Assembly (NCBI GenBank): GCA_009773155.1
Contig: WOVA01000016.1
Location: forward strand, 25,507-89,506
DNA length: 64,000 nucleotides
From: Elusimicrobiota bacterium
Lineage (GTDB): Bacteria > Elusimicrobiota > Elusimicrobia > Elusimicrobiales > UBA9959
Reading direction: 5' to 3'
Part shown: in pieces, positions 20,522 to 51,583 of the stretch
Layout of the letters: each line of letters begins with the position of its first letter
Numbering within the stretch: position 1 is the first letter of the stretch
The notes under the pieces: model-generated
Seen by the model: only the letters and a program-made list of their open reading frames with translations
What the model was told of the DNA's origin: nothing
Database searches by the model: none
Position numbers and translations under genes: made by a program

Positions 20522-20530
20522 TGTTATAAT
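20522..20530 (+). promoter_or_regulatory. Possible extended -10 promoter (TGTTATAAT) for the rpoN-like gene
   Basis: An exact TGnTATAAT lies about 27 nt before ATG 20557. No good -35 was found. Confidence 0.3.
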
Positions 20531-20556: not shown

Positions 20557-21654
20557 ATGAGAAAAAAACGCTCTCTCGGGCTGGAGCTTTCGGCCAGGGG
20601 CTCCCTGGAGGCCACGCTGCGCGCGGCCAGGATGATGGCGGCCGGCGAGGACGAGTTCCTGGCGCTGGAGCGGGCGGTGGAAGAGGACCCTCTTTTTAAA
20701 AAGCTGGTACGCCCGCCGGGCGGCGCGTCGCCGGCCGTGCGGCGCCGCAGGCCGGGCGGGGTGAATTTCGCCTGGAACCGCGCCCTGGGCCAGGACATGC
20801 TCGTCGAACCGGGGGAAGTCCCCGCCGGCGGCATGCTGGAAGGGCGCGAGGCCGCCCTGGCCCTTATAAAACGCATTGGCGCCGGGAATTTCGAGAGGTA
20901 TTTTCTTTCAGACGAGCCTGTACCGGCCGGGCGCAGTGCTTCCGGCACCGACAGCGGCGAAAGCCGCCCTGATCCGTCCGCGGAGGCCGCCGCGGCCTGC
21001 GGGCTCGCCCCGGCGGAGTTCGCCGAAGTCAGGGCTTTCACCGCCTCTTTCCTGGCGGCTCATGAGCGGCTGCAGCTGAAGCCCGTCGACCGCCCTTTCG
21101 CCGCCGTGGCGGCCGTCGCCGCCGGGCCGCGCGGCCCGGAACTTTCCTATCTTTCCTCGCGCTACGCGCGCGGGACCTACGACGTGGACCTGGCCGCCCT
21201 GCGCGGGCTGGGGGCCTCGGGCCTGATCTCCTCCGACGAAAAGCGCCGCCTCCGGCCGCTGCTGGCCGCCCTGCGGTCGCTCAACAGCAAGAAGCGCGGG
21301 CTGACGCTGCTGCTGCCGGCCCTGGCCGAGCGCCAGGCCGATTTCCTGCTGGGCCGCATCCCGTCGCCCAGGCCGCTGTCGATGACGGCCCTGGCCGCCG
21401 ACCTGGGCCTGAGCGCGGGCAGCGTCTCGCGGCTCGCCGCCGGGCGCAGCCTGCTCCTTCCCTCCGGTGAGGAAATAACCATACGCTCCCTGTTCCCGGG
21501 CAAGGGCTCCCGCTCGATTGACAGGATAAGGGATATATTGATACAAAAAGGCGGGGATAAACTGACCGACGACGAGGTCGCCGCCCGGCTGCGCGGGAAA
21601 TACGGGCTCAAACTCTCCCGACGCACGGTCAACCATTACAGGGGACGTATCTGA
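20557..21654 (+). CDS. rpoN: Short, divergent RNA polymerase sigma-54-like factor
   Basis: Region-I-like N-terminus (LGLELS...LEATL...DEFLALERAVEEDPLF). C-terminal HTH (PLSMTALAADLGLSAGSVSRLAAGR) and an RpoN-box-like LSRRTVNHYRGRI. At 365 aa it is shorter than typical RpoN. Confidence 0.68.
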   Translation: MRKKRSLGLELSARGSLEATLRAARMMAAGEDEFLALERAVEEDPLFKKLVRPPGGASPAVRRRRPGGVNFAWNRALGQDMLVEPGEVPAGGMLEGREAALALIKRIGAGNFERYFLSDEPVPAGRSASGTDSGESRPDPSAEAAAACGLAPAEFAEVRAFTASFLAAHERLQLKPVDRPFAAVAAVAAGPRGPELSYLSSRYARGTYDVDLAALRGLGASGLISSDEKRRLRPLLAALRSLNSKKRGLTLLLPALAERQADFLLGRIPSPRPLSMTALAADLGLSAGSVSRLAAGRSLLLPSGEEITIRSLFPGKGSRSIDRIRDILIQKGGDKLTDDEVAARLRGKYGLKLSRRTVNHYRGRI

Positions 21655-22751
21655 AAAAACAGGAATCACAATCGCAAGCGCTGCAGCACAGCCTTTTCCG
21701 GTCGGTCTTCAACGAGTCGACCGAGAGGTTCCTGGTGCTCGACGCCGCCGGCGTCATCCGGCTGGCCAATGACAGCGCCCTGGAGCTGCTCGGCTATAAA
21801 GAAAGCGAAGTGGTCGGCCAGGGCGTCGCGAAGCTGGTGCTGGAGAAGGACGCGGCCGAGCTGGAAGGCTTCCTGAAAGCCGTATCCGAAAGCGGCGAGC
21901 TGCGCAACTATAAATTCTACTTCCTCACCTCGCGCCAGAGCATCATCCGCCTCTTCATCAGCATAAAGGCCCTGAGGGACGAGGACGGGAAGCTCGAGGG
22001 CTTCAGGCTGGCCCTCTCGCTGGTCTATCCCGACGAGTGGGCGGCCCTGCGCGACCCGCATTTTTTCCAGGGCGTCGCCAGGAAGCTCGGCCGCCTGACC
22101 TCCGTGGGCCAGCTCACGTCCATCTTCGCCCATGATATCAAGAACCCGCTGCACGTGATACTTTCCACCTCCGAACTGATGCTCTCCTCCGGCGAGCTGC
22201 CGGCGGAATCCCGCGAGAGCCTGGAACTCATCGAGCGCAACGCCCAGCGCGCCTCGCGCATAGTCAAGACCCTGCTCGATTTTTCGCGCAGCGGCATCTG
22301 CCAGCTGCGCCCCTGCTCGGTTAACGATATCGCCGAGCATTGCATCGGGCTTCTCGCCAGCTCGCTGAAGACCTCCAGGATCTCGGTCAAGAAGGAACTC
22401 GGACAGGCGCCCAAGGTGTTCCTGGACCCGCATTACCTCAACAGCGTGGTCTACAATCTGCTCAACAACGCGGCCGAGGCCCTCGGCCCCGACGGGGGCG
22501 AGATAGTCGTCGCCTCCGGCGAGAACACGCCGGGGGAAGCCTTCCTGCGCATAACGGACAATGGCCGCGGCATGGAGCCCGGCGTCCTCTCGTCGGTATT
22601 TCAGCCCTTTTTCACCACCAAGGAGAACGGCACCGGGCTGGGGCTGTACCTGGCCAGGCAGGTCATGAACGAACACAGCGGCCGCATCACGCTCGACTCC
22701 AGGCCCGGCAAAGGCACGTCGGTGACGCTCTTCTTCACCAAGCTGGCCTGA
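21651..22751 (+). CDS. PAS-domain sensor histidine kinase (start uncertain)
   Basis: PAS (LFRSVFNESTERFLVLDAAGVIRLAN), H-box SIFAHDIKNPL, and ATPase N/G boxes (NLLNNAAEA, DNGRGM, GTGLGL). PAS residues extend upstream of the first GTG (21735). The only in-frame candidates are CTG 21651 and CTG 21681. Confidence 0.85.
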   Translation: MKKQESQSQALQHSLFRSVFNESTERFLVLDAAGVIRLANDSALELLGYKESEVVGQGVAKLVLEKDAAELEGFLKAVSESGELRNYKFYFLTSRQSIIRLFISIKALRDEDGKLEGFRLALSLVYPDEWAALRDPHFFQGVARKLGRLTSVGQLTSIFAHDIKNPLHVILSTSELMLSSGELPAESRESLELIERNAQRASRIVKTLLDFSRSGICQLRPCSVNDIAEHCIGLLASSLKTSRISVKKELGQAPKVFLDPHYLNSVVYNLLNNAAEALGPDGGEIVVASGENTPGEAFLRITDNGRGMEPGVLSSVFQPFFTTKENGTGLGLYLARQVMNEHSGRITLDSRPGKGTSVTLFFTKLA

Positions 22752-22772: not shown

Positions 22773-24141
<1,369 letters not shown>

Positions 24142-24146
<5 letters not shown>

Positions 24147-24202
24147 ATTTTTTTCTACAAAATATTGTAGAATAAAATCTACAATGTGGAATAAAGTCTA
24201 CA
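24142..24202 (+). promoter_or_regulatory. Putative enhancer (UAS): three TGTAGA-N6-TCTACA palindromes
   Basis: TGTAGA 24142 / TCTACA 24154 / TGTAGA 24166 / TCTACA 24178 lie on a 12-bp lattice, plus TGTGGA 24185 / TCTACA 24197. The array sits about 80-140 bp upstream of the sigma-54 promoter and starts at the activator stop codon. Confidence 0.6.
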
Positions 24203-24249
24203 CTCACCCTTGTAACAAGTTTTTCACAGTCCCAACAGGAAGCGAAAAT

Positions 24250-24277
24250 ATCCCGTCCGTCAGGCGGGATTTTTTAT
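24250..24277 (+). terminator. Rho-independent terminator after the activator gene
   Basis: The hairpin tcccgtcc-gtca-ggcggga is followed by TTTTTT. Confidence 0.65.
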
Positions 24278-24278
24278 T

Positions 24279-24293
24279 TGGCAACTTTGTTGC
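24279..24293 (+). promoter_or_regulatory. Sigma-54 (-24/-12) promoter
   Basis: TGGCAACTTTGTTGC fits TGGCAC-N5-TTGC with GG and GC correctly spaced. It lies about 75 nt upstream of ATG 24369, which has a GGAGG RBS. Confidence 0.75.
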
Positions 24294-24368
24294 TACTACT
24301 TTTTTCGGGGAACATCGATTTTTCGGTCATCGCTTGACTGGTTTTAATAGTTAGTGGAGGAATAGCTT

Positions 24369-25787
24369 ATGAAACGGATCATTAATCTCCTGACGGCCGC
24401 GGCCCTCTCTTCGCTCCTGTCCCTGCCCGCCTACGCCGCCCCGCTGCTGATAAACTACCAGGGCCGGCTGATAGACACCGCCGGGAACCCGCTGATCGTA
24501 ACAAACCAGCCCATAACTTTCAGGATCTACGACGCTCTTACGGGCGGCAATCTCCAATGGACCGAGAACCAGAGCATAACTCCGGACAACGGCATCTTCA
24601 ATGTCTCGCTCGGAAGCGTCAGCTCTCTCCCCGCCCCGGTCTTTTCCTCCGACGACCGGTACCTCGAGGTCCAGATCGGCGCCGACTCCCCGCTTTCGCC
24701 GCGCACCCGGCTACTCTCCGTTCCCTACGCCGTTTACGCCGCCAATATAGGATCTCCTTCCAGTTCCATCAATGTTTCCACTCATATGGTCCTTTCCGGC
24801 GGCCAGCTCCGCTTCGGTAATTTTGCCTCCGCTCCCTCGGTCGCCGTCGGCGCCGGCGCGATGTATTATAACACCACCAATAACCAGCTCTATTACCACA
24901 ACGGCACGGCCTGGACAGCCCTGGCGGCCGGCGGCATCAGCCCGCTGACCGACAACGGTGACGGCACCGTTACCCTAAACGTGCCTGCCAACAGGGTCGG
25001 CCTTGGAAAAGCGCCCGCCGAAAAGTTGGACGTGGCCGGTAATATCAAGGCCGATTACGGCCTTATATCCGCGACCGCCGCGGTCAGCGGCGCGGTCTAT
25101 GTGGGCTCCGGCGCGAACATCAGCACGATAACGCCGACGGGATTCTTCGGCAGCGGCGCGGGGCTGCTTAACGTGCCGGTGGGCGACAATACGGTGACGT
25201 CGGCCAAGATAGTGGACGACAGCATAATGAACGCCGACATCAACGCGTCGGCCGCGATAGCCAAGAGCAAGCTGGCGGCTTTGAATATAGTGAACGCGGA
25301 CGTGGACGCGGCGGCCGCGATAGCCCCGTCGAAGATAGCGGGCACGGCGGCCATACTGGGCGCGAATACGTTTACCGGCGCGCAGACGTACGCCGCCGGT
25401 TCGTCGCTGGCGGCGGCGGCCGCACAGCCTGGCGTGGCGGTGTCGACGGCGGTCTTCATCGGCACGGGCGCGAACATCAGCACGATAACGCCGACGGGAT
25501 TCTTCGGCAATACAATACACGCTTCCAGCGCCACGCTGACGGGTGACGCGGAAGTCCGCGGCTTGATTAAGGCCGGCTCCACCCCGGCGGCCATAACCGA
25601 TGTCTCCGGCAATGTCTTGGCCTCCAAACTGATCGGGGCAATACCACAAGCTGTCACTGTGTTCGTCTCCGCTGATTGTGAGGCTTTAACCCCAGGGACT
25701 GTGGCACAGTTCTGCTATAACAGCACTTCGTTTATTCTTAATGTTTCGACTAGCACGAATCTCGGAGGCTTTGCTCCGTTGCATTAG
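24369..25787 (+). CDS. Secreted fibre/adhesin-like repeat protein (uncharacterised)
   Basis: Signal peptide MKRIINLLTAAALSSLLSLPAYA. The protein is Ala/Gly/Ser/Thr/Asn-rich with no TM. It has the motifs INYQGRL and MYYNTTNNQLYYHNGTAWTAL and the internal repeat G.GANISTITPTGFFG. Confidence 0.7.
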   Translation: MKRIINLLTAAALSSLLSLPAYAAPLLINYQGRLIDTAGNPLIVTNQPITFRIYDALTGGNLQWTENQSITPDNGIFNVSLGSVSSLPAPVFSSDDRYLEVQIGADSPLSPRTRLLSVPYAVYAANIGSPSSSINVSTHMVLSGGQLRFGNFASAPSVAVGAGAMYYNTTNNQLYYHNGTAWTALAAGGISPLTDNGDGTVTLNVPANRVGLGKAPAEKLDVAGNIKADYGLISATAAVSGAVYVGSGANISTITPTGFFGSGAGLLNVPVGDNTVTSAKIVDDSIMNADINASAAIAKSKLAALNIVNADVDAAAAIAPSKIAGTAAILGANTFTGAQTYAAGSSLAAAAAQPGVAVSTAVFIGTGANISTITPTGFFGNTIHASSATLTGDAEVRGLIKAGSTPAAITDVSGNVLASKLIGAIPQAVTVFVSADCEALTPGTVAQFCYNSTSFILNVSTSTNLGGFAPLH

Positions 25788-25819
25788 TGATAGACCTAAG
25801 CATCCCTCGCCGGCTAATT

Positions 25820-28003
25820 ATGGGCTACAAAAAAGGCGGCATGATACTATTGACTTTCCTTGTCGGCGGCTTGTTCGCCGTCCAGGGGGTTTCTTTTGCC
25901 GCTAACACCCTGGAGACGCGGGCGGTCACGGGCGGGCTGGGGATCTCGTCGGGCACGGCGAAGATACTTGAGTCGGTGATAGGCGAGCTCTCCGGGCCGG
26001 CGCCGACGGGGTCCGTGCGCAAGGTCCTCTCGGGTCACGCCCGGACCAGCCACAGCCCGGGCGCGCTCTACGACATCGCGGTGACCACGCAGCCGGTGGA
26101 CGAAGGGCAGGTGCGGATAACCTTCACCACGCCCGGCCGCGCCGGCTTCCGCGGGCAGCTTTCCTTCGTGGAAGTCAAGATAGCCACCTACGCCATCACC
26201 GCGGCTAATTACGAGGCGATAACTTCGTCGCTGACGCTGACGGCGCTGAGCACCGGCACGGCGGGTCTGACCACTTATTATCACCTGGTCCCCGGGCCGA
26301 CCTATTACGCCGCCGGGCGCGCCCGCGACGCGGCGGGCATGAAGAGCCGCCTCTCGCCGACGCCGACGTTCCTGACCTCGGCCATAGCGCCGGCCCCGGT
26401 CACCTCCATTACTATCGTCAACTCAACCTACGGCGCCGTTAATATCACCTGGAACGTGACCGGCGACGACGGTTTGATCGGCGACCTGACCACCGGCTAT
26501 TTCCGCATAGCTTATTCCAGCGTGCCGGCGGAAGCGGCCCTTTTCAGTTCCGCCAATTACACCACCCAGCTTTCCACCAGCGCGCTGGCCGGCTCCACCC
26601 AGTATCACCGGCTCTCCGGCCTGCAGGGTAATGTGACCTATTACGCCGCCGTCTTCATCGGCGACGAGGTGACCGTCTACGGCGGACTCGGGACCATCGC
26701 GCAGGTTGTCACGATGGCTTATCCGCCGATCCAGTCCGGCTTCTCAAATCTTTCCAGCGACGGGTTCACGGTCAGTTATACGGCCAACAACTACCCCGGC
26801 GCGCAGTACTATATCCAGACGTCCAGCGACCCCGCTTTCTCCTATGCCACGAATTCCGGCTGGATCACGACAAGCTCGGCGTCCTTCTCCGGGCTCAACA
26901 CCAACCAGACTTACTATGTGCGCGGCAAGGCGCGCAATTCGCAACTGGTGGAAACCCAGTATGCGGACCTCGGCAGCGTCTCGCTGACACTCAACGTTTC
27001 AAAGCCCAAGCCGCCGCCCCTGAAGGGGGAGGCCTCCGGCTCCACCATAATCCTTTCCTGGGACCAGGTGGTCTACAACATAGCCGGCGGCACTACCACC
27101 ATAGCCGCGTACGACATCTACTACAGCACCGGGGTCAACGGGGCGGAGAATTTCATCGAGGCCGTCTCCAGCTCGGTGTTCACCAGGACTTACACGCCTC
27201 CCGCGGCGCGCTGGTACTATGTGAAGGCGCGCGACCAGTACAGCCTGCGCAGCGATCCGTCCATATGGGTGAAGAGTACGCTCGACGTGGCGCGCGTGGT
27301 GGCCGCCGACCTCCGCGCCGTGGCGGATATGCCGCCGGACGCGGGCTACCAACTCGCCGCCTCCGGCCTTACGCTGCGGATATCCCACCAGAGCCAGTAC
27401 GAGACCGGGCTTGTGCAGGCCTCGTATAAGGTCTCGCTGCTCGACAATAACGGCAACGAGCGCGTGGGCCTGGACCTGCCGTCCGCGGCCGTCGTGACTA
27501 TGCCCACCACCCGGACCGGCGCCGTGACCATAACCGGCTACTCGCCGTCGATCTCCTATTCCGTCTACGATTACGCCGTCTTCTACTACAACGGCGTGGA
27601 GGACGTGAACATCGGCGGCGCGGTGGACCCGAACTCCGGCACCGTCAGCGTCTCCACAAAGAAGACGGGCGTCTTCAAGGTAAAGCAGGTTATAAGGCCT
27701 TCCTCCTTCAGGATAACCCAGACCGTGCCGCGCAAGATCTTCACGCCCAACGGCGACGGGATCTGGGACGAGTTCAACATCGTCTACGACAACCCGGAGG
27801 GGCTCTCCATCTCCGACGCCAAGGTTTATGACCTCTCCGGGGCCGAAGTGGCGTCGCTGCGCGCCGGCACCTATAATACCAGCGCCTCGCTGTCGTGGGA
27901 CGGCCGGCGGAAGGGCGGCGACAAGGCGGCGGCCGGCATCTATGTCTACCAGTTTAAGGCCGGGTCAAAGTACCATAACGGCACGATGGTGCTGGCGCGG
28001 TGA
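25820..28003 (+). CDS. Large secreted FN3/Ig-like repeat protein with T9SS-type-B-like (gliding-motility C-terminal) domain
   Basis: Signal/TM segment MILLTFLVGGLFAVQGVSFA and repeated beta-rich modules (..YY.RGKARN.., WYYVKARD). The C-terminal IFTPNGDGIWDEFNIVY...GIYVYQFKAG resembles the PNGDG.ND C-terminal sorting domain. Start ATG 25820 is preferred over GTG 25787. Confidence 0.75.
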   Translation: MGYKKGGMILLTFLVGGLFAVQGVSFAANTLETRAVTGGLGISSGTAKILESVIGELSGPAPTGSVRKVLSGHARTSHSPGALYDIAVTTQPVDEGQVRITFTTPGRAGFRGQLSFVEVKIATYAITAANYEAITSSLTLTALSTGTAGLTTYYHLVPGPTYYAAGRARDAAGMKSRLSPTPTFLTSAIAPAPVTSITIVNSTYGAVNITWNVTGDDGLIGDLTTGYFRIAYSSVPAEAALFSSANYTTQLSTSALAGSTQYHRLSGLQGNVTYYAAVFIGDEVTVYGGLGTIAQVVTMAYPPIQSGFSNLSSDGFTVSYTANNYPGAQYYIQTSSDPAFSYATNSGWITTSSASFSGLNTNQTYYVRGKARNSQLVETQYADLGSVSLTLNVSKPKPPPLKGEASGSTIILSWDQVVYNIAGGTTTIAAYDIYYSTGVNGAENFIEAVSSSVFTRTYTPPAARWYYVKARDQYSLRSDPSIWVKSTLDVARVVAADLRAVADMPPDAGYQLAASGLTLRISHQSQYETGLVQASYKVSLLDNNGNERVGLDLPSAAVVTMPTTRTGAVTITGYSPSISYSVYDYAVFYYNGVEDVNIGGAVDPNSGTVSVSTKKTGVFKVKQVIRPSSFRITQTVPRKIFTPNGDGIWDEFNIVYDNPEGLSISDAKVYDLSGAEVASLRAGTYNTSASLSWDGRRKGGDKAAAGIYVYQFKAGSKYHNGTMVLAR

Positions 28004-29109
28004 GCGGAGATATTATGGAAAGGGACGAAAATAAAGTTTCTCTCCTCGCGGCCGCGGCGGCGCTGCTCTTTCTCTCCGCCGCCTCAGCGCGCGCCTCGTT
28101 CACCGATTCGGGTTACGCGGCCCGCCAGGCCGCGATGGGCCAGGCTTTCACCGCCATCGCCGACGACTCCGGCTCGGTGCCCGCCAATCCAGCGGGGCTC
28201 GTGAATCTCTCCGGTCCCGAGCTCACCGCCGTCTACGGCAAGCTCTACCAGGGCCTCTCCGACAATTCCGACATCGGCCGCGGCTATTTCGGCTTCGCTT
28301 CTCCGGTGAAGCGCTGGCTGCCCGGCGCCGCGGCTTTCAGCTGGGACGAGACCCGCCTGACGGAAGCCTACGCCGAAACCTCCTTCTCGGTCTCCTACGC
28401 CACCCGCGCCTGGCGCGGCCTGGCGACCGGCCTGACGCTCAAATACCTGCGCAAGGGCTACGAATCCGATTCTTACACGGCGGTTGACCCGCTTTTCAGC
28501 GGCGGCTACTCCAAGGCCGCCCTGGGCGTAGACCTCGGCGCGCATTACCGGCTCTCGCCGAAATATACGTTCGGCCTGCTGCTGCGCAATATCAACCGCC
28601 CCGACCTGGGCATAGGCGGGAAGGACGCGCTGCCGGCGCAGGGCAGGCTCGGCGCGGCCTACTGGCTGCGCAACGGCGTGGTCAGCCTGGACGCCGGCTT
28701 CGGCGAGGATTTCGAGCTGGCCCTGGGCGCCGAATACGTCCTTCACCACAAGTACCCGCTGCGCCTGGGGCTCAACGTAAACGACGACGCGCGCCGCAAC
28801 GTGAGCTTCGGCCTCGGCGCCAGGATGGCCTCTTTCGGCCTCGATTATTCCTTCACCCTGCCGATAGGCGGCGTGCAGGACATCTCGGGCTCGCACCTGC
28901 TGGCTTTCTCCATGCGCTTCGGCCGGGCCGACGCCGGCTTCTACGCGGCGCAGGCCGATCCCGCCGCCGCGGCCCAGCTGCGGGACGCGCTCGCGGCCCT
29001 CAAGGCCGCCGAGCAGCGCGAGCGCGATCGCGAGCGGGAGATCCTGGACCTGGAGCGCCGGCTGCTGGAGAAGCAGCGCGCTGTCGGCGGGCCGGCGCCC
29101 TCCCGATGA
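28000..29109 (+). CDS. Outer-membrane beta-barrel protein (PorV/PorQ- or PorP/SprF-like), C-terminal coiled coil truncated by a frame change
   Basis: Signal peptide LLFLSAASARA. The motif AAMGQAFTAIADDSGSVPANPAGL resembles that family. Alternating beta-strand pattern ending ...GSHLLAFSMRF, then a coiled coil (EQRERDREREILDLERRLLEKQ), with the stop at 29107-29109. Confidence 0.7.
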   Translation: MSGDIMERDENKVSLLAAAAALLFLSAASARASFTDSGYAARQAAMGQAFTAIADDSGSVPANPAGLVNLSGPELTAVYGKLYQGLSDNSDIGRGYFGFASPVKRWLPGAAAFSWDETRLTEAYAETSFSVSYATRAWRGLATGLTLKYLRKGYESDSYTAVDPLFSGGYSKAALGVDLGAHYRLSPKYTFGLLLRNINRPDLGIGGKDALPAQGRLGAAYWLRNGVVSLDAGFGEDFELALGAEYVLHHKYPLRLGLNVNDDARRNVSFGLGARMASFGLDYSFTLPIGGVQDISGSHLLAFSMRFGRADAGFYAAQADPAAAAQLRDALAALKAAEQRERDREREILDLERRLLEKQRAVGGPAPSR

Positions 29110-29485
29110 ACCCAAAGTTATTATCCCGTCGACCGAAGTCCCCGGCGAATCCATACGCGCGCTCGAGGAGACCCTGAACGCGCTCAAGGGCGAACTGGAG
29201 AAGGCCAGGCTCGAGAGCGAATCCTTCAAGACCCGCGTCAGCGGCCTCGAGGAGCGGCTTAAGACCGCGCCCAGGCCCTCGGCGCCTGCCGTCAGGCCCG
29301 CGGCCCCGGCCCCCGCGCCGGCGGCCAGGCGTTCCTACGAGGCGCAGAAAGGCGATACGCTGCAGAGCGTCGCCGAGAAAGTCTACGGCGACGCCTCGCG
29401 CTGGCCGGAGATCTACAGGGCCAACGCCGCGTCGCTCGGCCGCGGCGGAGAAGTGAAGCCCGGCCAGGTCCTGGTCATCCCCTGA
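29108..29485 (+). CDS. Coiled-coil + LysM domain reading frame without a start codon (probable frameshifted 3-prime part of the preceding gene)
   Basis: The +1 frame is open from 28868 to TGA 29483-29485 and encodes ...IRALEETLNALKGELEKARLESESFKTRVSGLEERL...YEAQKGDTLQSVAEKVYGDASRWPEIYRANAASLGRGGEVKPGQVLVIP (LysM). No in-frame ATG, GTG or TTG occurs before the domain. Confidence 0.6.
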   Translation, partial: EPKVIIPSTEVPGESIRALEETLNALKGELEKARLESESFKTRVSGLEERLKTAPRPSAPAVRPAAPAPAPAARRSYEAQKGDTLQSVAEKVYGDASRWPEIYRANAASLGRGGEVKPGQVLVIP

Positions 29486-29619
29486 CCGGGACCGAGGCCG
29501 GCGCTTTATCAGGGATTTCCCTTTTTAGTAACATTTGCGAAACACGCCGGGTGTAAATTATAGGCGCCGGTACTCCGCCCCGCCGGCGGCAAGGACGGGG
29601 CAGGTGCGGAAGAAAGCAA

Positions 29620-29642
29620 GGACACCATGCGGAATGGTGTCC
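29620..29642. repeat. GGACACC-family palindrome copy upstream of the giant coiled-coil gene
   Basis: ggacaccat-gcgga-atggtgtcc, about 40 nt before ATG 29682. Confidence 0.75.
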
Positions 29643-29681
29643 CCACCCGGCGGAACGATGTTTTTTTTACGGACTTTAACT

Positions 29682-32600
29682 ATGAACGACAAATGGGACG
29701 AATCTTCGCTTAACGAGCAGGCGATAACCGACCTGGAGACGGCCAAGCTCGCGCTGCGCTGGGCGCTGGACAAGCTCCGCGCCAACCAGGAAGAGTCGCT
29801 CAAATCCCGCCAGACGCTGCAGGAGAAAGCCTCGCAGGTCTCCTTCCTCGAGAACCAGGTCAAGGCCAAGAACGCCGAGATGGAGCGGCAGCAGCGCGCG
29901 CAGGAGGAGGAGATCAAGTCCCGCCAGGAGAGCCTGGAGTACCAGTTCAGGTCCCGCCTGGAGCGCCTGACCGAGCGCGAGAAGGAACTCGAGGATAACG
30001 CCGCGAAGCTGGAGGGCTCCTTCAAGGCCCGCGAGCAGAAGCTCACCGACGACTTCCAGAAAAAATCCGAGGAACTGCGCGGCCGCTGGGGCCAGGTGGA
30101 GGCCGAGATCTGGCAGCTGCGCCAGGAGCAGCTGGCCAAGCAGCAGGAGTTCGAGAAGCTTTACGCCGAGCGCCTCTCGGCCGAGCAGAAGCGCGCCCGG
30201 GAAGAGTCGGAGAACTCCCGCGCGGAGATGGAGAGAAATTACGGGTCCCGCGTGCAGGAGCTGGAGAAGCGCGAGCACACGCTGGGCGAGGAGCTCAAGA
30301 AACAGGAAGCGGTGATGAAGTGGGCCCGCGACAGCTGGCAGAAGGACGCCGACGAGCGGGAGAAGAAGCTCAAGGTCCGCGAGCTGGAGATAGAGAAGAA
30401 ACTGCTCGAGAAAGAGCAGGAGATAGACGATTACAAGGTCAAACTGGGCCTGCTCAACAAACAGCTGACCGACCTGCCCGAGGCCGTGCGCAAGCGCGAC
30501 GAGGAACTGGAGCGCTACCGCGGCGCGCTGGACAGCCTGGAAGGCGTGATCAGGACCCTGGAAGGGGAGAAGAGAGCCCTCGCCCAGGATTCCGATTCCA
30601 GGCAGTCCCGCCTGGCCGAGGCGCTCGAGGCCGAGAAGGCCCGTTTCAAGGACCTCGAGAACGAGATCCCCAGGCGCCTCAAGATAGCCATAGAGCACGA
30701 GCGCGCCCGGCTGCAGGAGAAGGTCTCCGAGGTGGAGAAGAACTTCGGCCTGGACCTGCGCAAGAAGCAGGAAGAGGCGGACTACCTCGAGCGCAATCTC
30801 AAAACTTTCGAGGAGACCATAAAGACCCTGCAGGCCGAGCGCGAAGGGTTCGCGCAGAAGACCGAGCAGCTGCAGACCCAGCTCAATATCCGCTCCGAGG
30901 AGACCTCCTTCCGCGAGCGGCAGCTGCAGTCGGAGTACGAGGTCCGCCTCAGGGTGGAGCTCGAGAAGCAGAGCCGCGGCCTGCGCTCGGAGATAGAGAC
31001 CGCGCAGCGCATCTACGAGGACAATCTGCGCCTCAAGATCGAGGAGATCGCCCACCTGCGCAAGGAGATGGAGACCCTGGCCGGCGAGAAGTCCGACCTG
31101 TCCTCCTCCTCCTCCGAGCTGCGCCGCCAGGTGGAGGCCCAGAAGGATAAGTACGAGCGCGACCTGGCCTCGACCAGGGCCGCCCTCAAGGAGAGCCACG
31201 ACGCCGAGCTGGGCCGCCGCATGGAGGAGGAAACGGCGAAGCACGAGCAGGCCCGCGCGGCGCTGCAGAAGGATTTTTCCGCCCAGCTGGAGGGCCTCAA
31301 CCTTATAGTCGCCGAGCGCGAGGCGGAGCTCAACCGGTTCAAGAACGAGGTCCAGCGGATGTCCGCCGAAAAGGCCGAGGCTATTGCGCGGGAGAAGGAC
31401 AAGGCGCGCCAGGACCTGGAGCTGCAGGCGAAGGCGTTCGCCGAGACCGAGAAGATATACCAGGAGAAGCTGCAGCAGTCCGCGCGCAATATCGAGGCCG
31501 TCCGCGTCGAGAAGGAAGAGACCATACTGCGCGAGAAGGACCGCCTCGAGCGTATCTACGCCGAGCGCGAGAAGGATTACGAGGATCAGCTGGCCCGCAG
31601 GGACCAGGAGGTCGTGCGGCTGCGCGAGGACCTGCTAAAGTCGGCCCATGAGCGGGAGACGGTTCTTCGCGAGGTTTCGGCGGAGCGCGACGCGCTGCGC
31701 CAGAAGCTCAGGGAAGCGCATGACGCCGCCGCCCGTGCGGAAGCGCTCAAAGAACTGGAACTGGAGCGCGCCCGCCAGGCCGAGAAGGACAAGTCGGCCG
31801 ACATCCTCGACAAGCGCGACAAGGAGCTGGCCGCGCTGGCAAGGACCAAGGACGAGCAGGACGCCGCCTACCGCCGCTCGCTGGAGGATTTCCGGGCCAG
31901 GCTCTCCGAAGCCGTGGGCAAGATGGAAGAGCTTAAGGCCGTGGCCGAGGAACGCCAGACCCGCGTCTCCGCGCTGCAGGTGGAGATCTCCGAGGCCAGG
32001 CGCCAGCATAACGACGAGCATATGGCGGTGTCCGGCCGGCTGGCCGACAGGGAAAAGCAGCTCAAGTCCCTGCGGATGGACTATGATTCGCTCAAGGCCA
32101 ATTCGGCGGCCGTCACCCAGGAGTCGCAGAAGCAGATTGGCGAGGCGCTGATGCGTCTCAAGGCCGCCGAAGAGCACCGCGGCGCTTCCGAGAAGGCTCT
32201 TTCCGAAAGCCGGCGCGAGATAGATATGCGCAGGGTAGAGCTTTCCAAGAAAGAGGACGAACTGCTAAAGCTGCACTCCGACCTGGAGAGCTCGCGCAAC
32301 TCCGCAGCCCGGACAGTGGAGGAATCGCGCGGCCGCGAAACTTCCCTCAAGAGCCGGCTGGAGGTGCTCGAGTCCGAGCTGGCCGGCCGCTCTTCGCTGG
32401 CGTCGGACCTTACCGCCGAGCTGAAAGCGCGCAACGCCGAGCTTTCAAAGGCGGGGGAAGAGAAGTCCCGCCTGGAGCAGGAGCTCAACGTCAGGCTCTC
32501 GGAATTCAAGCAGCAGCTTGAGTCGGAGCGCAAGGAGTTCCGCCTGTCCTACGAGCGGCTCAACCGCGAATTCGCCGACCGGGAAAAGGCCCTGATCGGG

Positions 32601-33413
32601 GAGGTCAACGCCCTCAGAGGCCAGTTGACTTCCGGCGAGTCACTGGCCCAGGACCTGAAGTCCCGGCTCGAGAGCGCGGAGGCGGCCGGGCCCGGGATGA
32701 AGGCGCGCATAGACGAACTGCAGAAGAAGATCAGGAACATGGAAGAGGCGTCCTCGGGCCTCGCCGAGAGCCTGCTGGCGGCCAAAGAGAGCGCCTCCGC
32801 CGCCGCGGCCCGGATAGAGAAGCTCTCCGCCCAACTGGAGGACGAGAAGAAGCGCCGCTCCTCGCTCGAAGCCGCCAACGAGACGCTCTCCTCGGAACTG
32901 CGCAGGAAACTCGAGGAGTTTTCGGCGGCCTCCTCGTCCGTCAAGGACCTTTCCGGCCGCCTGGCCCGGGCGCAGGAACTATGTGAGACGGAAAAGCGAA
33001 AGCGGGAGGAGACGGAAGTCTATTCCCAGACCTCCGCTTCCGCCCTCCAGGAGAAGGAAGTGGAACTGTCCGACCTGAAGTTCTCCATGAAGGAGCTGTC
33101 TTCCAGGGTCAATAAACTCCAGTCCCTCTACGAGGCCGAGAAGCTCAAGCGCGAGGAGACCGAGGTTTATTCCCAGACCTCGGCCAGCGCCCTGCGCGAG
33201 AAGGAAGACGAGCTCAAGGGCCTCGGGAAGCGCTGCGCGCGGCTGGAATCCGAACTCAACGCCTCCAGGAAAGAGGCGGGTTCCGCGTCGGTCGAGGCGG
33301 CCAGGCTGGCCGGCGAGATCGAGGAGCTCCGGCGCGTCAAGGAAGAGTACGAAAAGAGCCGCAGGCTGGCGGAAAAGCTCAAAGATAAGCTCAAGCTATG
33401 GAAGAAGGAATGA
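29682..33413 (+). CDS. Giant coiled-coil-rich protein (about 1240 aa), no enzymatic domain recognised
   Basis: Almost entirely E/K/R/Q/L/A heptad-like sequence with no TM or signal peptide. Start set at MNDKWDES (29682; ATG 29658 is also possible). The ORF-track TTG 29535 start would read through a palindrome repeat. A C-terminal duplicated block EK.KREETEVYSQTSASAL.EKE.EL is present. Confidence 0.8.
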   Translation: MNDKWDESSLNEQAITDLETAKLALRWALDKLRANQEESLKSRQTLQEKASQVSFLENQVKAKNAEMERQQRAQEEEIKSRQESLEYQFRSRLERLTEREKELEDNAAKLEGSFKAREQKLTDDFQKKSEELRGRWGQVEAEIWQLRQEQLAKQQEFEKLYAERLSAEQKRAREESENSRAEMERNYGSRVQELEKREHTLGEELKKQEAVMKWARDSWQKDADEREKKLKVRELEIEKKLLEKEQEIDDYKVKLGLLNKQLTDLPEAVRKRDEELERYRGALDSLEGVIRTLEGEKRALAQDSDSRQSRLAEALEAEKARFKDLENEIPRRLKIAIEHERARLQEKVSEVEKNFGLDLRKKQEEADYLERNLKTFEETIKTLQAEREGFAQKTEQLQTQLNIRSEETSFRERQLQSEYEVRLRVELEKQSRGLRSEIETAQRIYEDNLRLKIEEIAHLRKEMETLAGEKSDLSSSSSELRRQVEAQKDKYERDLASTRAALKESHDAELGRRMEEETAKHEQARAALQKDFSAQLEGLNLIVAEREAELNRFKNEVQRMSAEKAEAIAREKDKARQDLELQAKAFAETEKIYQEKLQQSARNIEAVRVEKEETILREKDRLERIYAEREKDYEDQLARRDQEVVRLREDLLKSAHERETVLREVSAERDALRQKLREAHDAAARAEALKELELERARQAEKDKSADILDKRDKELAALARTKDEQDAAYRRSLEDFRARLSEAVGKMEELKAVAEERQTRVSALQVEISEARRQHNDEHMAVSGRLADREKQLKSLRMDYDSLKANSAAVTQESQKQIGEALMRLKAAEEHRGASEKALSESRREIDMRRVELSKKEDELLKLHSDLESSRNSAARTVEESRGRETSLKSRLEVLESELAGRSSLASDLTAELKARNAELSKAGEEKSRLEQELNVRLSEFKQQLESERKEFRLSYERLNREFADREKALIGEVNALRGQLTSGESLAQDLKSRLESAEAAGPGMKARIDELQKKIRNMEEASSGLAESLLAAKESASAAAARIEKLSAQLEDEKKRRSSLEAANETLSSELRRKLEEFSAASSSVKDLSGRLARAQELCETEKRKREETEVYSQTSASALQEKEVELSDLKFSMKELSSRVNKLQSLYEAEKLKREETEVYSQTSASALREKEDELKGLGKRCARLESELNASRKEAGSASVEAARLAGEIEELRRVKEEYEKSRRLAEKLKDKLKLWKKE

Positions 33414-36049
33414 CCTCCTCCTCCGGACTGGAAGGCCTGGACGCCGAAATAGACCGCCTCCTGGAGGAAGTGCAATCCAAGGAGAAAGTTTATTCCGCGC
33501 GCGTAGCGCTGCTTGAAGGCGAGCTCAAGCGCCGCGACGGGGAGGTGCACACCCTCTCGGCCAGGCTGGCCGAGTCCGAGAAGACGTGGTTCGCGCGGGA
33601 GCGCGAGCTCAAGGAGAAAGGCCGCTCGCTGAAGGAGGTCCTTGCCGAGCGCGACGCGGCCGCCGCCGACCTTACCCTCAAGGCGGAGGAACTGACGAAG
33701 AAGATCGCCTCCCTCGAAAAGAGCCTGGAGAAGGAACTCACCGCCAACAGGGAGAAGGAAGTCTACATACAGAGCGCCAAGTCGGCGGTAAAGGGGCGCG
33801 ACGCCGAGGTGGAGAAGACCTGGCGTATGCTGGAGGAGGCCCGCTCCGAGATAGCCTCCTGGAAGGCGCAGACCTCCGAGCGCGACTCGCGCCTGGAGGC
33901 CGCCGCCGCCGGGAACCAGGCCCTCGCGCTGGAGATACAGAAGCTCAACAATTCGCTGCAGCAGGCGGCGCAGGGGTTCCGGCACAAGCTGGACATGGTA
34001 AGGAAGGAAGCCGAGTCCGCCGTGCTGGAGAAGTCCTCCGCGCTGGTCCGCGTCAGCGCGGCCGAGGAGGCCATGAATGAGCGGGCCGCCTCCATGGAGA
34101 AGCTGGCCGTCAGGGCCAGGCAGCTGGAAGAGACCCTCGCCGTGCGCGAATCCCGGCTGGCCGAGCTGGAGGACAGGCTTAAATTTTTCGAAACGGTCCC
34201 GCAGTCGGCGGAGAAGGCTTCCGCCGAGACCGCGGCGCTGCGCCGCAAGGAGCGTCTGGTCTCCGAACTGACGTCACGGGTGGCCTCGCTGGAGAAGGAC
34301 CTGACTTCCGTGGAGGAGGACCGGGCGCGGCTGGCCGAGCGCATGCACGTCTCCGAGGCGGAACTGCGCGCCGCCCGCGAGGAGCTGGCCGGCTCGACCG
34401 CCAGGTTAAGGGCGCTGGAGTCGGAGCGCGACTCGTTCAAGAAACTTTCGGCGGAGGCCCAGGAGATGGCCGCCGCCATCTCGGAGAAGTCCGGGCGCGA
34501 GGATACCGAGAAACTCTCTAAAATAGGCGAGAGCCTGCGCCAGGAGCACGTCCGCTACAGTCAGGCGCTCTCGCGGGCCGAGGAACTCGCCACCCGCTAC
34601 GCCGCGCTCGAGGCCGATCACGAGGCGCTGAAAAAACGCCACGACGATTCCGTGGCGGAGAAGGCGGTGGAGATAGAGAAGCTGCGCTCCGACCTGGCCC
34701 AGGCCGAAGCGGAAGGCGCCAGGCGCCTGTCCGAACTGGCCGAGACCGACCGCCGCCGCTACCACGAGCTCGCGGGCGAGATGCAGCAGCTCAGCTCCCG
34801 CCTCGCGGAGAAGGAGATGGAGCTGGAGGCCGCCCGCTCCGGCCACGAGGCCATAAAGGCCGAATGCGCCCGCCTGCGCGAGCACGAGCGCGAACTGCAT
34901 AAGAATTACGAGCGCCAGCTCAAGGACGACAACCGCCAGCTGGAGGAGGCCCGCGCGGCCGCCGCCAGGCTGGAGGGGGAAATGCACGCCATCCATTCCC
35001 GGGAGTCCGCCCTGAAGGCGGAGGCCGCGGCGCTGAAAGCCGAGATAGAGGTCTCCAAAAAAGAGAAGAACACGGCCGCTTCTTCCGGCAAAAAGCTCAG
35101 GGAGCTGGAGTCACGGCTGGAGGAAAAGAACGACGAACTGTCCGAGGCGCGCAAGAGCCTCTCCAAGATCTCGACGGAGAAGGCGCGCTGGCACGAGCGG
35201 GAGCGCAAGCTGGCGGAGGACGGCCGCGGCGGCAAGGCCAAAGCCGAACTGGCCGACGCCGAGCGCCGCCTGGCCGCCAAGGAGCAGGAACTGTCCGGGG
35301 TCTCCGACAGGCTGGAGGCCGCCGCCGCCGAGATCTCCGGCCTGCGCGCCGCGAGGGAGAGCTTCAGGAGCAGGCCCGCCCCGGGCGCCTCGACGGACCT
35401 GCAGGAGCTGGTCGCCGGCATCGCGCACCAGATCTCCAATTCCGTCAGCATAATACGCAGCCACGCCGAGTACTGCCTGGAGGCGCCTAAAGAGTCAGAT
35501 CTCAAAGAGCCGCTGGGCGCGATAGTGCGCAGCATAGTCACCCTGCAGAAGCGCATCGAGGAAATAGCCGACTTCTCCAGGCCCGTTCTGCTGCAGCGCA
35601 AGACCGTCGGGCTCGGCGACATAGCCAGGGAGGCCCTGGCCTTCGCCGCCAACGCGCAGGGGCAGGTCCCTTTCCAGTCCAGGGTCTCCGCCCCTAAAGA
35701 CCTTCCTCCGCTGCGCGTGGACCAGGTCCGCCTGCAGGAGGCCCTGGAGCATGTCCTGACCAACGCCGCCGAGTCGCTCGGCAAGGACGGGCGGATAGTG
35801 GTGGACATACGCCGTTCGTCGGGCGGCCAGGTCATAAAAGTGTCCGACACGGGACAGGGAGTAGAACCCAAGAACCTGCCGGCGGTCTTCGAACCTTTCT
35901 TTTCCACCAGGCCAGGCAAGCTGGGTCTGGGGCTGGCGATAGCCAAGAATATCATCAAGTCGCACGGCGGAGAGATCAAGCTCTCCAGCGAGTTCGGCCG
36001 CGGAACGCAGGCCGAGATCTTCCTCCCGGACGCTCCGGAAGAGGACTAA
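33398..36049 (+). CDS. Histidine kinase with about 620-aa N-terminal coiled coil
   Basis: Overlaps the previous gene (ATGA at 33410-33413). Long coiled coil, then H-box LVAGIAHQISNSVSII and an HATPase (LTNAAESL, SDTGQGV, GKLGLGLAIAKNII.HGG). No TM segment seen. Confidence 0.85.
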   Translation: MEEGMTSSSGLEGLDAEIDRLLEEVQSKEKVYSARVALLEGELKRRDGEVHTLSARLAESEKTWFARERELKEKGRSLKEVLAERDAAAADLTLKAEELTKKIASLEKSLEKELTANREKEVYIQSAKSAVKGRDAEVEKTWRMLEEARSEIASWKAQTSERDSRLEAAAAGNQALALEIQKLNNSLQQAAQGFRHKLDMVRKEAESAVLEKSSALVRVSAAEEAMNERAASMEKLAVRARQLEETLAVRESRLAELEDRLKFFETVPQSAEKASAETAALRRKERLVSELTSRVASLEKDLTSVEEDRARLAERMHVSEAELRAAREELAGSTARLRALESERDSFKKLSAEAQEMAAAISEKSGREDTEKLSKIGESLRQEHVRYSQALSRAEELATRYAALEADHEALKKRHDDSVAEKAVEIEKLRSDLAQAEAEGARRLSELAETDRRRYHELAGEMQQLSSRLAEKEMELEAARSGHEAIKAECARLREHERELHKNYERQLKDDNRQLEEARAAAARLEGEMHAIHSRESALKAEAAALKAEIEVSKKEKNTAASSGKKLRELESRLEEKNDELSEARKSLSKISTEKARWHERERKLAEDGRGGKAKAELADAERRLAAKEQELSGVSDRLEAAAAEISGLRAARESFRSRPAPGASTDLQELVAGIAHQISNSVSIIRSHAEYCLEAPKESDLKEPLGAIVRSIVTLQKRIEEIADFSRPVLLQRKTVGLGDIAREALAFAANAQGQVPFQSRVSAPKDLPPLRVDQVRLQEALEHVLTNAAESLGKDGRIVVDIRRSSGGQVIKVSDTGQGVEPKNLPAVFEPFFSTRPGKLGLGLAIAKNIIKSHGGEIKLSSEFGRGTQAEIFLPDAPEED

Positions 36050-36063
36050 GTCCCGAGGAAAAC

Positions 36064-37236
36064 ATGGCCAAGATACTGATCGTCGACGACGAACCAGACA
36101 TGAGGCTGGCGATAAAGAACGTCCTGCGCCTGAGGGGGCACGAAGTCTCCGAGGCCCAGGACGGTCCGTCCGCGCTGGCCGCGCTGGAGGGCGAGAAGCC
36201 CGACCTGGTCCTGCTCGACATCAGGCTGCCCGGCATGGACGGCATAGAGCTGCTGGAGCGCATACGCAAGATGAGCCGCTCCCTGCCGGTGGTGATGATA
36301 ACCGGGTACGGCCACATACAGTCGGCCGTCGACGTGATGAAGCTCGGAGCCAACGAGTACCTGCAGAAACCTTTCGAGAACTCGCAGCTGGTGGATACTG
36401 TGAAGCGCTTCACTTCCGGGCGCAAGCCCGCGCCGGCGGCCGCCGCAGGGGACATCCCGCCTCATGATGGCGGGGACGCCATGCCGCAGGGCGTCGCCAA
36501 ACCTCTCTTTACCCCGGCCAGGCTGCTGGCCCTGGCCGCCGCCGCCGCCGCCCTGCTTCTTTTTTTCCGCTGGTCCGACGGCCGGCGCAATTACGCCGCG
36601 GCTTACGAGTCGGCCGGGGCCAACGTGTCATCCCTGGTCTGGCGCGGCGGGGACCTCTGGGTCTCCGACTGGCTGGAGCAGAGCCTCTACCGCTACGCGC
36701 CGCGCGGCGGCAAGCTCGCCCTTGCCGAGAAAGTCGCGCTGCCGGGCACCCATATCACCGGCTTCGCCTTCGGCGACGACGCCCTCTACATCTGCGATTC
36801 CTGGGCCGGCGTGGTGCAGGAACGTACGCTGGAGAAGGGGTTCCCGGTGGCCAGGAACCACGACCTGCCGGGCAAGATAACCTCGCTTTTCTTTGACGGC
36901 AAATATCTCTGGACCTGCGATTCGGAGGGCGTGGTCTCGCGCCGGAGGACCGGGGAAGACCTGCCGGTGGAGGCGGAGTTCCGGCTGGCGCATAAGCCCG
37001 ACCAGATCTATAAGGACTCCGGCGCCTTCTGGTCGGTGGTCTCCTCGAGCGGCAGGCTCTACCGCCACCGGCTCGACGACAAACTTTCGGTGGAGGCGGT
37101 CTTTACGGCCGGCGACCCCGGCGCCGACAGGCCCCTGTCGGCCTTTACCTGGAGCAAGGGCAGGCTCTGGCTGGCCAGGGAGGGCGGCAAGAGCATAGGG
37201 GAGTACGGCCCCGGGATATTGAAAGAAACCGACTGA
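36064..37236 (+). CDS. Response-regulator receiver fused to a TM helix and a C-terminal beta-propeller-like repeat domain
   Basis: REC (KILIVDDEPDMR...DLVLLDIRLPGMDG...KLGANEYLQKPF), TM LLALAAAAAALLLFF, then five repeats of the type [LF].W..G.LW..D (SLVWRGGDLWVSDW, ALYICDSW, YLWTCDSEG, AFWSVVSSSG, RLWLAREGG). Confidence 0.85.
   Translation: MAKILIVDDEPDMRLAIKNVLRLRGHEVSEAQDGPSALAALEGEKPDLVLLDIRLPGMDGIELLERIRKMSRSLPVVMITGYGHIQSAVDVMKLGANEYLQKPFENSQLVDTVKRFTSGRKPAPAAAAGDIPPHDGGDAMPQGVAKPLFTPARLLALAAAAAALLLFFRWSDGRRNYAAAYESAGANVSSLVWRGGDLWVSDWLEQSLYRYAPRGGKLALAEKVALPGTHITGFAFGDDALYICDSWAGVVQERTLEKGFPVARNHDLPGKITSLFFDGKYLWTCDSEGVVSRRRTGEDLPVEAEFRLAHKPDQIYKDSGAFWSVVSSSGRLYRHRLDDKLSVEAVFTAGDPGADRPLSAFTWSKGRLWLAREGGKSIGEYGPGILKETD
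36472..36498. repeat. Degenerate GGGGAC-family palindrome inside the response-regulator linker
   Basis: ggggacgccatgccgcagggcgtcgcc (arms gacgcc/ggcgtc) encodes GDAMPQGVA between the REC domain and the TM. Confidence 0.5.
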
Positions 37237-37255: not shown

Positions 37256-37293
37256 AAAACCCCACCCCCGCCATATGGCGGGGATGGGTTTTT
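37256..37293. terminator. Bidirectional rho-independent terminator ending the locus (convergent with the pilin-like gene)
   Basis: aaaaccccacccccgcc-atat-ggcggggatgggttttt. Confidence 0.78.
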
Positions 37294-51328: not shown

Positions 51329-51583
51329 TTTTTTGAAGTCGCGATTTTGAGCCTCCTGGCCGGATCTCTTGGTTTCAAGTTTTCAAAAAGTTGGCAACTT
51401 TTTTGGAAATTCCGCGGCCGGTCACCAGTAACCAGCTGGCAGGGCATATATAAGGAGACTGCTATTAATAAAAAACTATATTTTGTATTAGGGTTTCTCA
51501 AAAAAGCATTATAAAACAATGCTTTTCGTAAAAACATTAAAACCAATTATAACTTCACCCCAACCCCGCAAAGGGGATGTTCT

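Follow-up and report, generated by a model that had tools for sequence, protein, structure and literature searches.

Three Conserved Dyads Upstream of a σ54-Type Promoter: A Probable Enhancer-Controlled Surface-Fibre Circuit in Elusimicrobia

Introduction

At glnAp2, dimers of NtrC occupy dyads about 110–140 bp upstream, and phosphorylation leads to oligomerisation, DNA looping and ATP-dependent opening of the promoter. In Escherichia coli, the atoSC genes lie directly upstream of the atoDAEB operon in the same orientation. Here we describe an array of three dyads, a σ54-type promoter and the genes on either side of them in a 64 kb stretch of DNA (the window), which a scan of one genome per species, using the response regulator encoded next to the array as query, places in an Elusimicrobia bacterium. 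Positions 24142–24294 of the window most probably represent the control region of a self-contained two-component, σ54 circuit driving a surface-fibre operon.

Several described systems come close to this locus. GlrR (QseF/YfhA), the regulator of glmY and glmZ in Enterobacteriaceae, has three TGTC-N10-GACA sites located more than 100 bp 5′ of a σ54 promoter (PMC3045617). Like the regulator described here, it is an NtrC-type response regulator with a Fis-type helix-turn-helix (HTH) domain and three 18 bp dyads of the form TGT-N12-ACA, placed more than 100 bp upstream of a −24/−12 promoter, and the GlrR sites are unequally conserved (PMC3045617). The two systems differ in the inner half-site, which is TGTC for GlrR and TGTRGA here, in the packing of the dyads, which in our locus follow each other at 24 and 19 bp and start inside the activator's own stop codon, in the lack of recognisable IHF sites here, and in their targets, a small RNA for GlrR and a surface-fibre operon in the present case.

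NorR at the E. coli norVW promoter likewise uses three inverted-repeat sites, which are thought to template the active oligomer, possibly a hexamer, and and both ATPase activity and open-complex formation depend on all three (PMC2831303). Whereas NorR carries a GAF sensor, binds GT-N7-AC sites and is encoded divergently from its target, our regulator has a receiver domain, and in contrast to the strict need of NorR for three sites, some of the orthologous loci discussed below carry a degenerate one. For NtrC two enhancers suffice, some protomers remaining without DNA contact (PMC2831303). The dimers on upstream dyads, the looping and the ATP-dependent opening of a σ54 closed complex are common to NtrC and the circuit proposed here, but NtrC relies on two strong sites with the motif TGCACC-N5-GGTGCA and obtains further protomers from solution. 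AtoC, finally, binds a palindrome upstream of the σ54-dependent atoDAEB operon (PMC3118216). AtoS is the best NCBIfam match of our kinase and AtoC that of our regulator (428 bits against a cut-off of 714), but the AtoC site is one 40 bp palindrome of two 20 bp repeats instead of three 18 bp dyads, the ato cluster is devoid of a σ54 gene, and the function of the target differs.

Results and Discussion

The array consists of three 18 bp dyads of the general form TGTRGA-N6-TCYACA within 24142–24202. Dyad 1 (TGTAGA-TTTTTT-TCTACA, 24142–24159) is centred at about −154 relative to the predicted transcription start, dyad 2 (TGTAGA-ATAAAA-TCTACA, 24166–24183) begins 24 bp after dyad 1 with its centre at about −130, and dyad 3 (TGTGGA-ATAAAG-TCTACA, 24185–24202) begins 19 bp after dyad 2 with its centre at about −111. 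An upstream enhancer would as a rule be expected to present at least two dyad sites roughly 80–200 bp 5′ of a −24/−12 promoter; here three fall within this range. On re-reading, the half-sites given in the original prediction, a short annotation made from the letters of the window, proved exact (TGTAGA at 24142 and 24166, TCTACA at 24154 and 24178). The same is true for its third palindrome, TGTGGA-N6-TCTACA at 24185–24202, and for the start of the array in the stop region of the activator gene, whose TAG codon (24144–24146) lies inside the first half-site. Scanning the 64 kb for TGTAGA-N6-TCTACA with up to one mismatch returned three matches, all at 24142–24202, against 0.02 expected by shuffling, and none of the 100 shuffles serving as chance control reached three. 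A fourth, degenerate dyad (TGTAAC-N6-TTCACA, 24211–24228) was rejected, since it holds 9 of 12 positions in the window but no more than about 6 of 12 in the remaining clades.

With the regulator as query, the scan yielded about 27 orthologous loci from other Elusimicrobia metagenome-assembled genomes at 61–92 % regulator identity, and 25 loci with enough sequence 3′ of the regulator were informative for the dyads. Three dyads follow the regulator stop in 24 of these 25, with the array starting 0–30 bp from the stop codon, or about 100 bp in locus L004. Across 150 half-sites the consensus is TGTRGAWWW. The N6 spacer inside the dyads does not vary between loci, dyads 2 and 3 follow each other at 19 bp in 24 of 25 loci, and dyads 1 and 2 at 24 bp (13 loci), 25 bp (nine) or 23 bp (three). 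Outside the spot directly after the regulator gene, no dyad matching at least 11 of 12 positions was found in 261 kb made up of the window and 28 related loci. The recognition helix GNKxxAAxLLxIDRKALY (IDRKALY) is invariant in all dyad-bearing orthologues and differs in homologues of at most 48 % identity, which have no dyads. This co-occurrence with the orthologues and their helix in 24 of 25 loci, together with a location 76–342 bp 5′ of a −24/−12 promoter, supports the original assignment of the dyads as the probable enhancer of the adjacent activator.

We considered whether the array might be a chance repeat or the remnant of a mobile element or satellite, devoid of any regulatory role. 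A metagenome scan with a generalised two-and-a-half-dyad pattern gave nine matches, of which three were orthologous Elusimicrobia loci of other clades and six were unrelated, mostly 24 bp tandem satellites plus other low-GC contigs, showing that such a pattern does turn up elsewhere. The unrelated matches, however, differ from the array in context, GC content and repeat structure, no shuffle produced three matches, and the array is strictly syntenic with conserved geometry in about 27 loci of different species. The conservation data appear to have effectively refuted a chance origin already, and we assign it a practically negligible probability.

A regulatory role might also be exerted through another protein, the dyads being operators of a CRP/FNR-like factor, another HTH dimer or a repressor while the regulator acts from solution or elsewhere. 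The form TGTGGA-N6-TCCACA superficially resembles the CRP core, some enhancer-binding proteins function without binding DNA, and one relative of the module, adjoining P0050, has no HTH domain. A CRP site is TGTGA-N6-TCACA with a 16 bp core and the upstream activating sequence of NifA is TGT-N10-ACA, whereas the dyads described here are TGT-N12-ACA, 18 bp long with the 6 nt half-site TGTRGA, one base longer than that of CRP. The dyads are moreover confined, within the 261 kb, to the neighbourhood of this regulator and track its invariant recognition helix, the regulator retains a full HTH_8 domain, and position, number and length fit known enhancer-binding-protein sites such as the three TGTC-N10-GACA sites of GlrR. 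Binding by a different factor is for these reasons quite unlikely.

Situated between stop codon and terminator, the array is probably transcribed, and the RNA of its 86 nt folds with −29 kcal/mol (z=−7.95), which would suit hairpins in the 3′ untranslated region of the regulator mRNA that protect against 3′ exonucleases or mediate pausing or termination, DNA binding being incidental. A strong fold is, however, automatic for any row of DNA palindromes. In the arms, five of six positions stay the same throughout the 25 loci, pointing to selection on sequence instead of pairing, and no covariation is apparent at the variable position 4/15, where 8 A–C and 7 other non-pairs occur among 75. The pairs counted there (AT 19, GC 18, GT 23, AC 8) are close to the values of about 17, 16, 25 and 10 expected from independence. 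Sequence-invariant arms and the missing covariation argue against an RNA hairpin; in addition, the spacers that would form the loops are held A/T-rich, the fixed 19 bp and 24±1 bp distances between dyads have no obvious RNA rationale, and the co-occurrence with a σ54 promoter within enhancer range would have no explanation. This evolutionary pattern has the appearance of a protein–DNA site, and a function at the RNA level seems very unlikely.

Returning to the dyads as an enhancer, we looked at the proposal that their half-sites form a 12 bp lattice offering the activator alternative registers. The 12 bp step is correct for the first four half-sites but fails for the third dyad, which begins 7 bp after the start of the fourth half-site. 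As a design principle it could not be upheld, since the dyad 1–dyad 2 distance of 23–25 bp shows that the lattice is not conserved: roughly half of the loci have a gap of 6 bp and the others one of 5 or 7 bp, with a constant spacer inside the dyads. Alternative registers are disfavoured as well, as the intervening TCTACA-N6-TGTAGA pair is everted and presents its half-sites in the wrong orientation for the same dimer.

Downstream of the array, the putative σ54 promoter TGGCAACTTTGTTGCT (24279–24294, plus strand) contains GG at 24280–24281 (−24) and GC at 24292–24293 (−12), doublets one helical turn apart in agreement with TGGCAC-N5-TTGCW. The core originally predicted, TGGCAACTTTGTTGC at 24279–24293, was found to be the sole exact TGGCA-N6-TTGC match of the window, and from the usual −12 spacing transcription would be expected to start near 24305. 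TGGCA-N7-TGC promoters, mostly of the TGGCAAAGTCGTTGCT type, are conserved at the corresponding position of 27 loci; every dyad-bearing locus has one, 76–342 bp after dyad 3. The short spacers between dyad 3 and promoter fall into four independent classes of 76/77, 87–89, 108 and 128 bp, separated by steps of about 11, 21 and 20 bp. These are approximately whole helical turns, as expected for looping that depends on the face of the helix; for the longer spacers no helical-turn constraint was seen. A consensus scan detected no σ70-like promoter on the plus strand from the terminator to the ATG at 24369, in front of which the ribosome-binding site GGAGGA (24356–24361, plus strand) is placed at a distance of 7 nt.

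Between dyad 3 and the promoter two further elements are recognisable. The first, GTAACAAGTTTTTCAC at 24212–24227, corresponds to TAACAAG-N3-TTTMAC, a motif found in most orthologous loci of every clade, which could be the site of an architectural or bending protein. An IHF site is not proposed here, as the element matches WATCAANNNNTTR only with two mismatches and fits the IHF consensus weakly. The second is an intrinsic-terminator-like hairpin with T-run (24250–24275, plus strand; hairpin 24250–24270) ending 3 nt before the −24 element. The hairpin had been part of the original prediction and was confirmed as ATCCCGTCCGTCAGGCGGGAT, with 8 pairs (5 GC and one G·U) and a 5 nt loop, followed by TTTTTATTT. 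Located 104 nt past the regulator stop, the GC-rich stem is directly followed by five T, or six with the closing T, and then ATTT, as in intrinsic terminators 3′ of a gene. The RNA fold amounts to −14.7 kcal/mol with a modest z-score of −2.1.

The stem was compared over four sequences of the window's clade, namely the window, L001, L002 and L090, the latter having been reached via its σ54-like homologue; L091 also belongs to this clade and stops short of the intergenic region. The loop varies (CGTCA, CCGCA, CCCTA and CCATA), while the only two stem changes, both in L090, keep the pairing (A–T to G·T and T·G to T–A). With four sequences of 86 % background identity, these pair-preserving changes are suggestive of a terminator, not decisive. 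Overall the hairpin and T-run look like a real intrinsic terminator that would end the regulator-operon transcript.

In most other clades no terminator is present between enhancer and promoter, one exception being L015 with a hairpin and T-run. The space is occupied instead by a conserved block of about 65 bp, TTAACAAnnATTTnAC...TTTCCTTATC...CCTATAAT (L005–L026 and L013–L038; e.g. L017:5440–5500), of which only the first part, the TAACAAG-N3-TTTMAC element, is shared with the window, and whose CCTATAAT portion aligns with the position of the window's terminator in the short-spacer clades. The block may constitute a σ70 promoter in tandem with the σ54 promoter or a protein-binding region. Its TATAAT is invariant; a σ70 promoter scan gave TTAACA-17-TATTCT in L017 (9 of 12 positions), no −35 element to go with the invariant TATAAT, and nothing consistent in L006. 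In the long-spacer clade (L005, L006, L007, L009, L012, L015, L019 and L026), the TATAAT is followed by an insert of about 100 nt, e.g. L006:5490–5610, which begins with a conserved CATGCnAAAA...GGCTATGAAAAAG. This insert, 5′ of the σ54 promoter, can be read as a small open reading frame (ORF) of about 35–40 amino acids or as a small RNA.

Insulation of the operon from read-through, as originally put forward, is therefore plausible for the window's clade and does not extend to most orthologous loci, where no terminator stands in this place. One might even ask whether the hairpin terminates at all or instead serves, inside the enhancer–promoter loop, to space or bend the DNA or to bind a protein as an inverted repeat, with read-through feeding the fibre operon. 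The missing terminator in most loci, the CCTATAAT block aligned with it in short-spacer clades, the short stem of 8 pairs including one G·U, the z-score of only −2.1 and the low power of the conservation test, given that the clade members share 86 % identity in the intergenic DNA around it, all speak for this. On the other side, the element has the canonical form of GC-rich stem, 5 nt loop and T-run about 100 nt past a stop codon, and both stem substitutions in the clade keep the pairing while four of five loop positions vary. Distant Calditrichia homologues provide a third argument for termination, as they show a hairpin and T-run between a stop-codon palindrome and a TGGCA-N7-TGC promoter: in L030:5347–5470 and L032:5332–5630 the palindrome GTGTAA-N5-TTACAC lies over the regulator stop, followed by hairpin and T-run and then by TGGCAAGCTCTTTGCT or TGGCAAGGCTTTTGCT ahead of the next gene. 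In another relative the terminator is placed 5′ of the palindrome. We consider a non-terminating hairpin unlikely. The terminator seems to be a lineage-specific addition outside the core design, and its layout looks like a recurrent solution where an activator gene lies directly upstream of a target of the same direction. The clade-specific exchange of the CCTATAAT block for a terminator represents a small natural experiment on the insulation of a tandem activator and target. An Rfam scan of the entire window at gathering thresholds returned five tRNAs only, with no match in 24100–24370.

The gene ending in the array (22773–24146, plus strand) encodes an NtrC-type response regulator and enhancer-binding protein of 457 amino acids, composed of REC, an AAA+ domain with GAFTGA and a Fis-type HTH. 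Its Pfam matches are Response_reg (5e−29), Sigma54_activat (8e−68), AAA_lid_14 and HTH_8 (1.5e−13), and the translation shows the GAFTGA loop and the Walker A motif GPSGAGKE, the domain set of an enhancer-binding protein. When its scores are compared with the curated NCBIfam cut-offs, it stays below every equivalog (AtoC 428/714 bits, PEP-CTERM PrsR 396/503, NtrC 393/559, ZraR 352/760 and GlrR 335/763) and appears to belong to an unnamed subfamily. Immediately upstream, a cytoplasmic PAS-HisKA-HATPase sensor histidine kinase (21735–22751, plus strand; domains from Pfam), syntenic at 53–91 % identity, is presumed to be its partner.

The first gene of this unit (20557–21654, plus strand) lies 2.6 kb upstream of the promoter and is a short, divergent member of the σ54 family with an ORF of 365 amino acids, whose homologues are called at 348 amino acids and which is labelled as a hypothetical protein at NCBI. 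Its only Pfam match is Sigma54_DBD (4e−11), and it remains below the TIGR02395 cut-off. The C-terminal 125 residues align to the DNA-binding domain of Aquifex aeolicus σN in the PDB, including an RpoN-box-like SRRTVNHYR, and the N-terminus resembles region I. An AlphaFold (AF2) model built from a shallow alignment reached a pLDDT (predicted local distance difference test) of 69, and its 26 best PDB matches are all σ54 chains, 17 of them at E≤0.001. When 1.84 billion representatives were searched with a profile, 220 members of this short σ54 family were recovered at E<1e−30, nearly all with 340–390 amino acids and matched over their full length; at 50 % identity the family counts at least 220 representatives. 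All ten members sampled carry only the DNA-binding domain according to Pfam, and of four whose gene context was looked up, three adjoin an enhancer-binding protein or histidine kinase and one resides in a flagellar cluster.

The gene order σ54-like gene, kinase, regulator is kept in all of the roughly 27 Elusimicrobia loci. In the window, tmk, holB and metG (identified by Pfam) lie on the minus strand, divergent from the three-gene unit, and the 68 bp gap between tmk and the σ54-like gene contains TGTTATAAT (20522–20530, plus strand), a candidate σ70 promoter of the extended −10 type. TGTTATAAT may drive the σ54-like gene, kinase and regulator as one operon.

Taken together, the circuit could work as follows. 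TGTTATAAT would recruit σ70-type transcription of the σ54-like/PAS kinase/regulator operon, and in the window's clade the transcript would end at the 24250–24275 hairpin and T-run. Phosphorylated by the kinase, the regulator would bind as dimers to the three TGTRGA-N6-TCYACA dyads via its Fis-type HTH, and three adjacent dimers in the fixed 24/19 bp geometry could nucleate the AAA+ hexamer. Looping out of the approximately 76 bp from dyad 3 to the −24 element, possibly aided by the TAACAAG..TTTCAC element, would bring the hexamer to the closed complex of the σ54 holoenzyme on TGGCAACTTTGTTGCT, where ATP hydrolysis would open the promoter around 24305. The output would be an operon of about 13 kb for a secreted fibre or adhesin, a protein with a C-terminal domain (CTD) resembling those of the type IX secretion system (T9SS), a member of the PorV family and additional proteins of the envelope and of signalling. 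With the activator gene immediately upstream of the target and in the same direction, the terminator would serve as an insulator that keeps activator-operon transcription out of the target operon and leaves expression to the σ54 switch. What the data show are the sequence features, their statistical rarity and their conservation together with the regulator; that the regulator binds, that the dyads template a hexamer, that the DNA loops, and where transcripts end and start is inferred, and a need for all three dyads is much less certain.

Several observations count against such a reading in whole or in part. The orthologue in L023, with 61 % identity and the same recognition helix, is followed by neither dyads nor promoter, the DNA there being unrelated, which shows that the link between helix and dyads is not absolute. 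Degenerate sites occur in L010 and L014 (site 2) and in L013 and L020 (site 1), so three full sites are perhaps not strictly required. The fold z-score of the terminator is modest, and its absence from most clades makes it inessential to the design. In the σ54-like protein, Pfam detected neither an activator-interacting nor a core-binding domain, and it is much less certain whether the sigma factor acting at TGGCAACTTTGTTGCT is this 20557–21654 protein or another RpoN of the genome.

The circuit is conventional in kind and follows the standard mechanism of enhancer-binding proteins, its new aspects being an unstudied lineage and an unnamed regulator subfamily, and the current picture of σ54 regulation is unchanged by these findings. 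For an uncharacterised regulator they do provide both a precise motif (inverted TGTRGAWWW with N6, present three times at distances of 24 and 19 bp) and a target operon, and this in a phylum where hardly any experimental genetics exists. Structural studies of how an AAA+ hexamer is templated by enhancer DNA could furthermore build on the conserved three-dimer geometry. σ54 control is hereby linked to a cell-surface fibre and a T9SS-like gene set, and such targets fit the proposal that σ54 mainly controls the bacterial exterior (PMC3162934).

The only appreciable upside in novelty lies with the short σ54-like family. A speculative and on balance doubtful extension is that the whole module forms an autonomous, orthogonal σ54 cassette in which the σ54-like protein of about 350 amino acids is dedicated to this one promoter. 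Were this true, the three dyads of fixed geometry would template exactly one hexamer, and sigma factor, sensor, activator, enhancer, terminator, promoter and target would be inherited as a unit across Elusimicrobia; the short σ54 family, frequently encoded beside an enhancer-binding protein or histidine kinase, might then be a widespread class of private σ54 factors.

The product of the first target gene (24369–25787, plus strand) is a secreted protein resembling fibres or adhesins, which carries a signal peptide and, at its N-terminus, the motif INYQGRL. Its N-terminus matches NCBIfam Bdello_MAT_N, the mosaic-adhesive-trimer fibre family of Bdellovibrio, with 3e−10 and below the cut-off, and its repeat region matches the cyanophage fibre gp28 with 7e−9. 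A fibre gene is found 3′ of the promoter in the orthologous loci wherever the contig continues. The probable operon extends on the plus strand over 25787–37236, as judged from the first strong plus-strand terminator past the promoter, which is met only at 37266–37283, so that the σ54 promoter may drive about 13 kb. After the fibre gene follow a protein with a T9SS-type CTD, a PorV/PorQ-family protein, a LysM-like stretch and a coiled-coil protein of 1292 amino acids, and the operon closes with a coiled-coil histidine kinase and a REC-domain (receiver) protein.

Some features of the target operon deserve mention in their own right. The pair at 25787–29109, in which a protein bearing a T9SS-type (CHU_C/FlgD_ig-like) sorting domain at its C-terminus precedes an outer-membrane protein of the PorV/PorQ family, sits in Elusimicrobia, which is not the phylum in which type IX secretion is usually described. 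Past the TGA of the PorV-like ORF, what clearly looks like coding sequence, containing a coiled coil and a LysM-like motif, runs on in a different frame (29107–29485). It has no ATG, GTG or TTG start; a frameshift in the assembly, a pseudogene or a recoding site could account for it.

Two kinds of repeats were encountered in the course of the scans. The metagenome contigs L082, L083 and L088 (GC content about 0.46) contain long tandem arrays of a 24 bp unit, TGTAGAGACGTGTCTACACTGTTG, that match the dyad pattern by accident and look like satellite DNA unrelated to the enhancer system. Within the window, near-matches to the σ54 promoter at 51267 and 51392 were rejected, as they belong to a repeat region and are off the TTGC of the −12 element. 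This non-coding, lower-GC stretch of 0.5 kb (50958–51410) holds five copies of CTTTCATGGTATTTT spaced by 64–137 bp, as well as two copies of AAAGTTGGCAA(G/C)TTTTT 125 bp apart that resemble a −24 element without a proper −12. On the minus strand, CTTTCATGGTATTTT supplies the ATG starts of tiny Gly- and Arg-rich ORFs.

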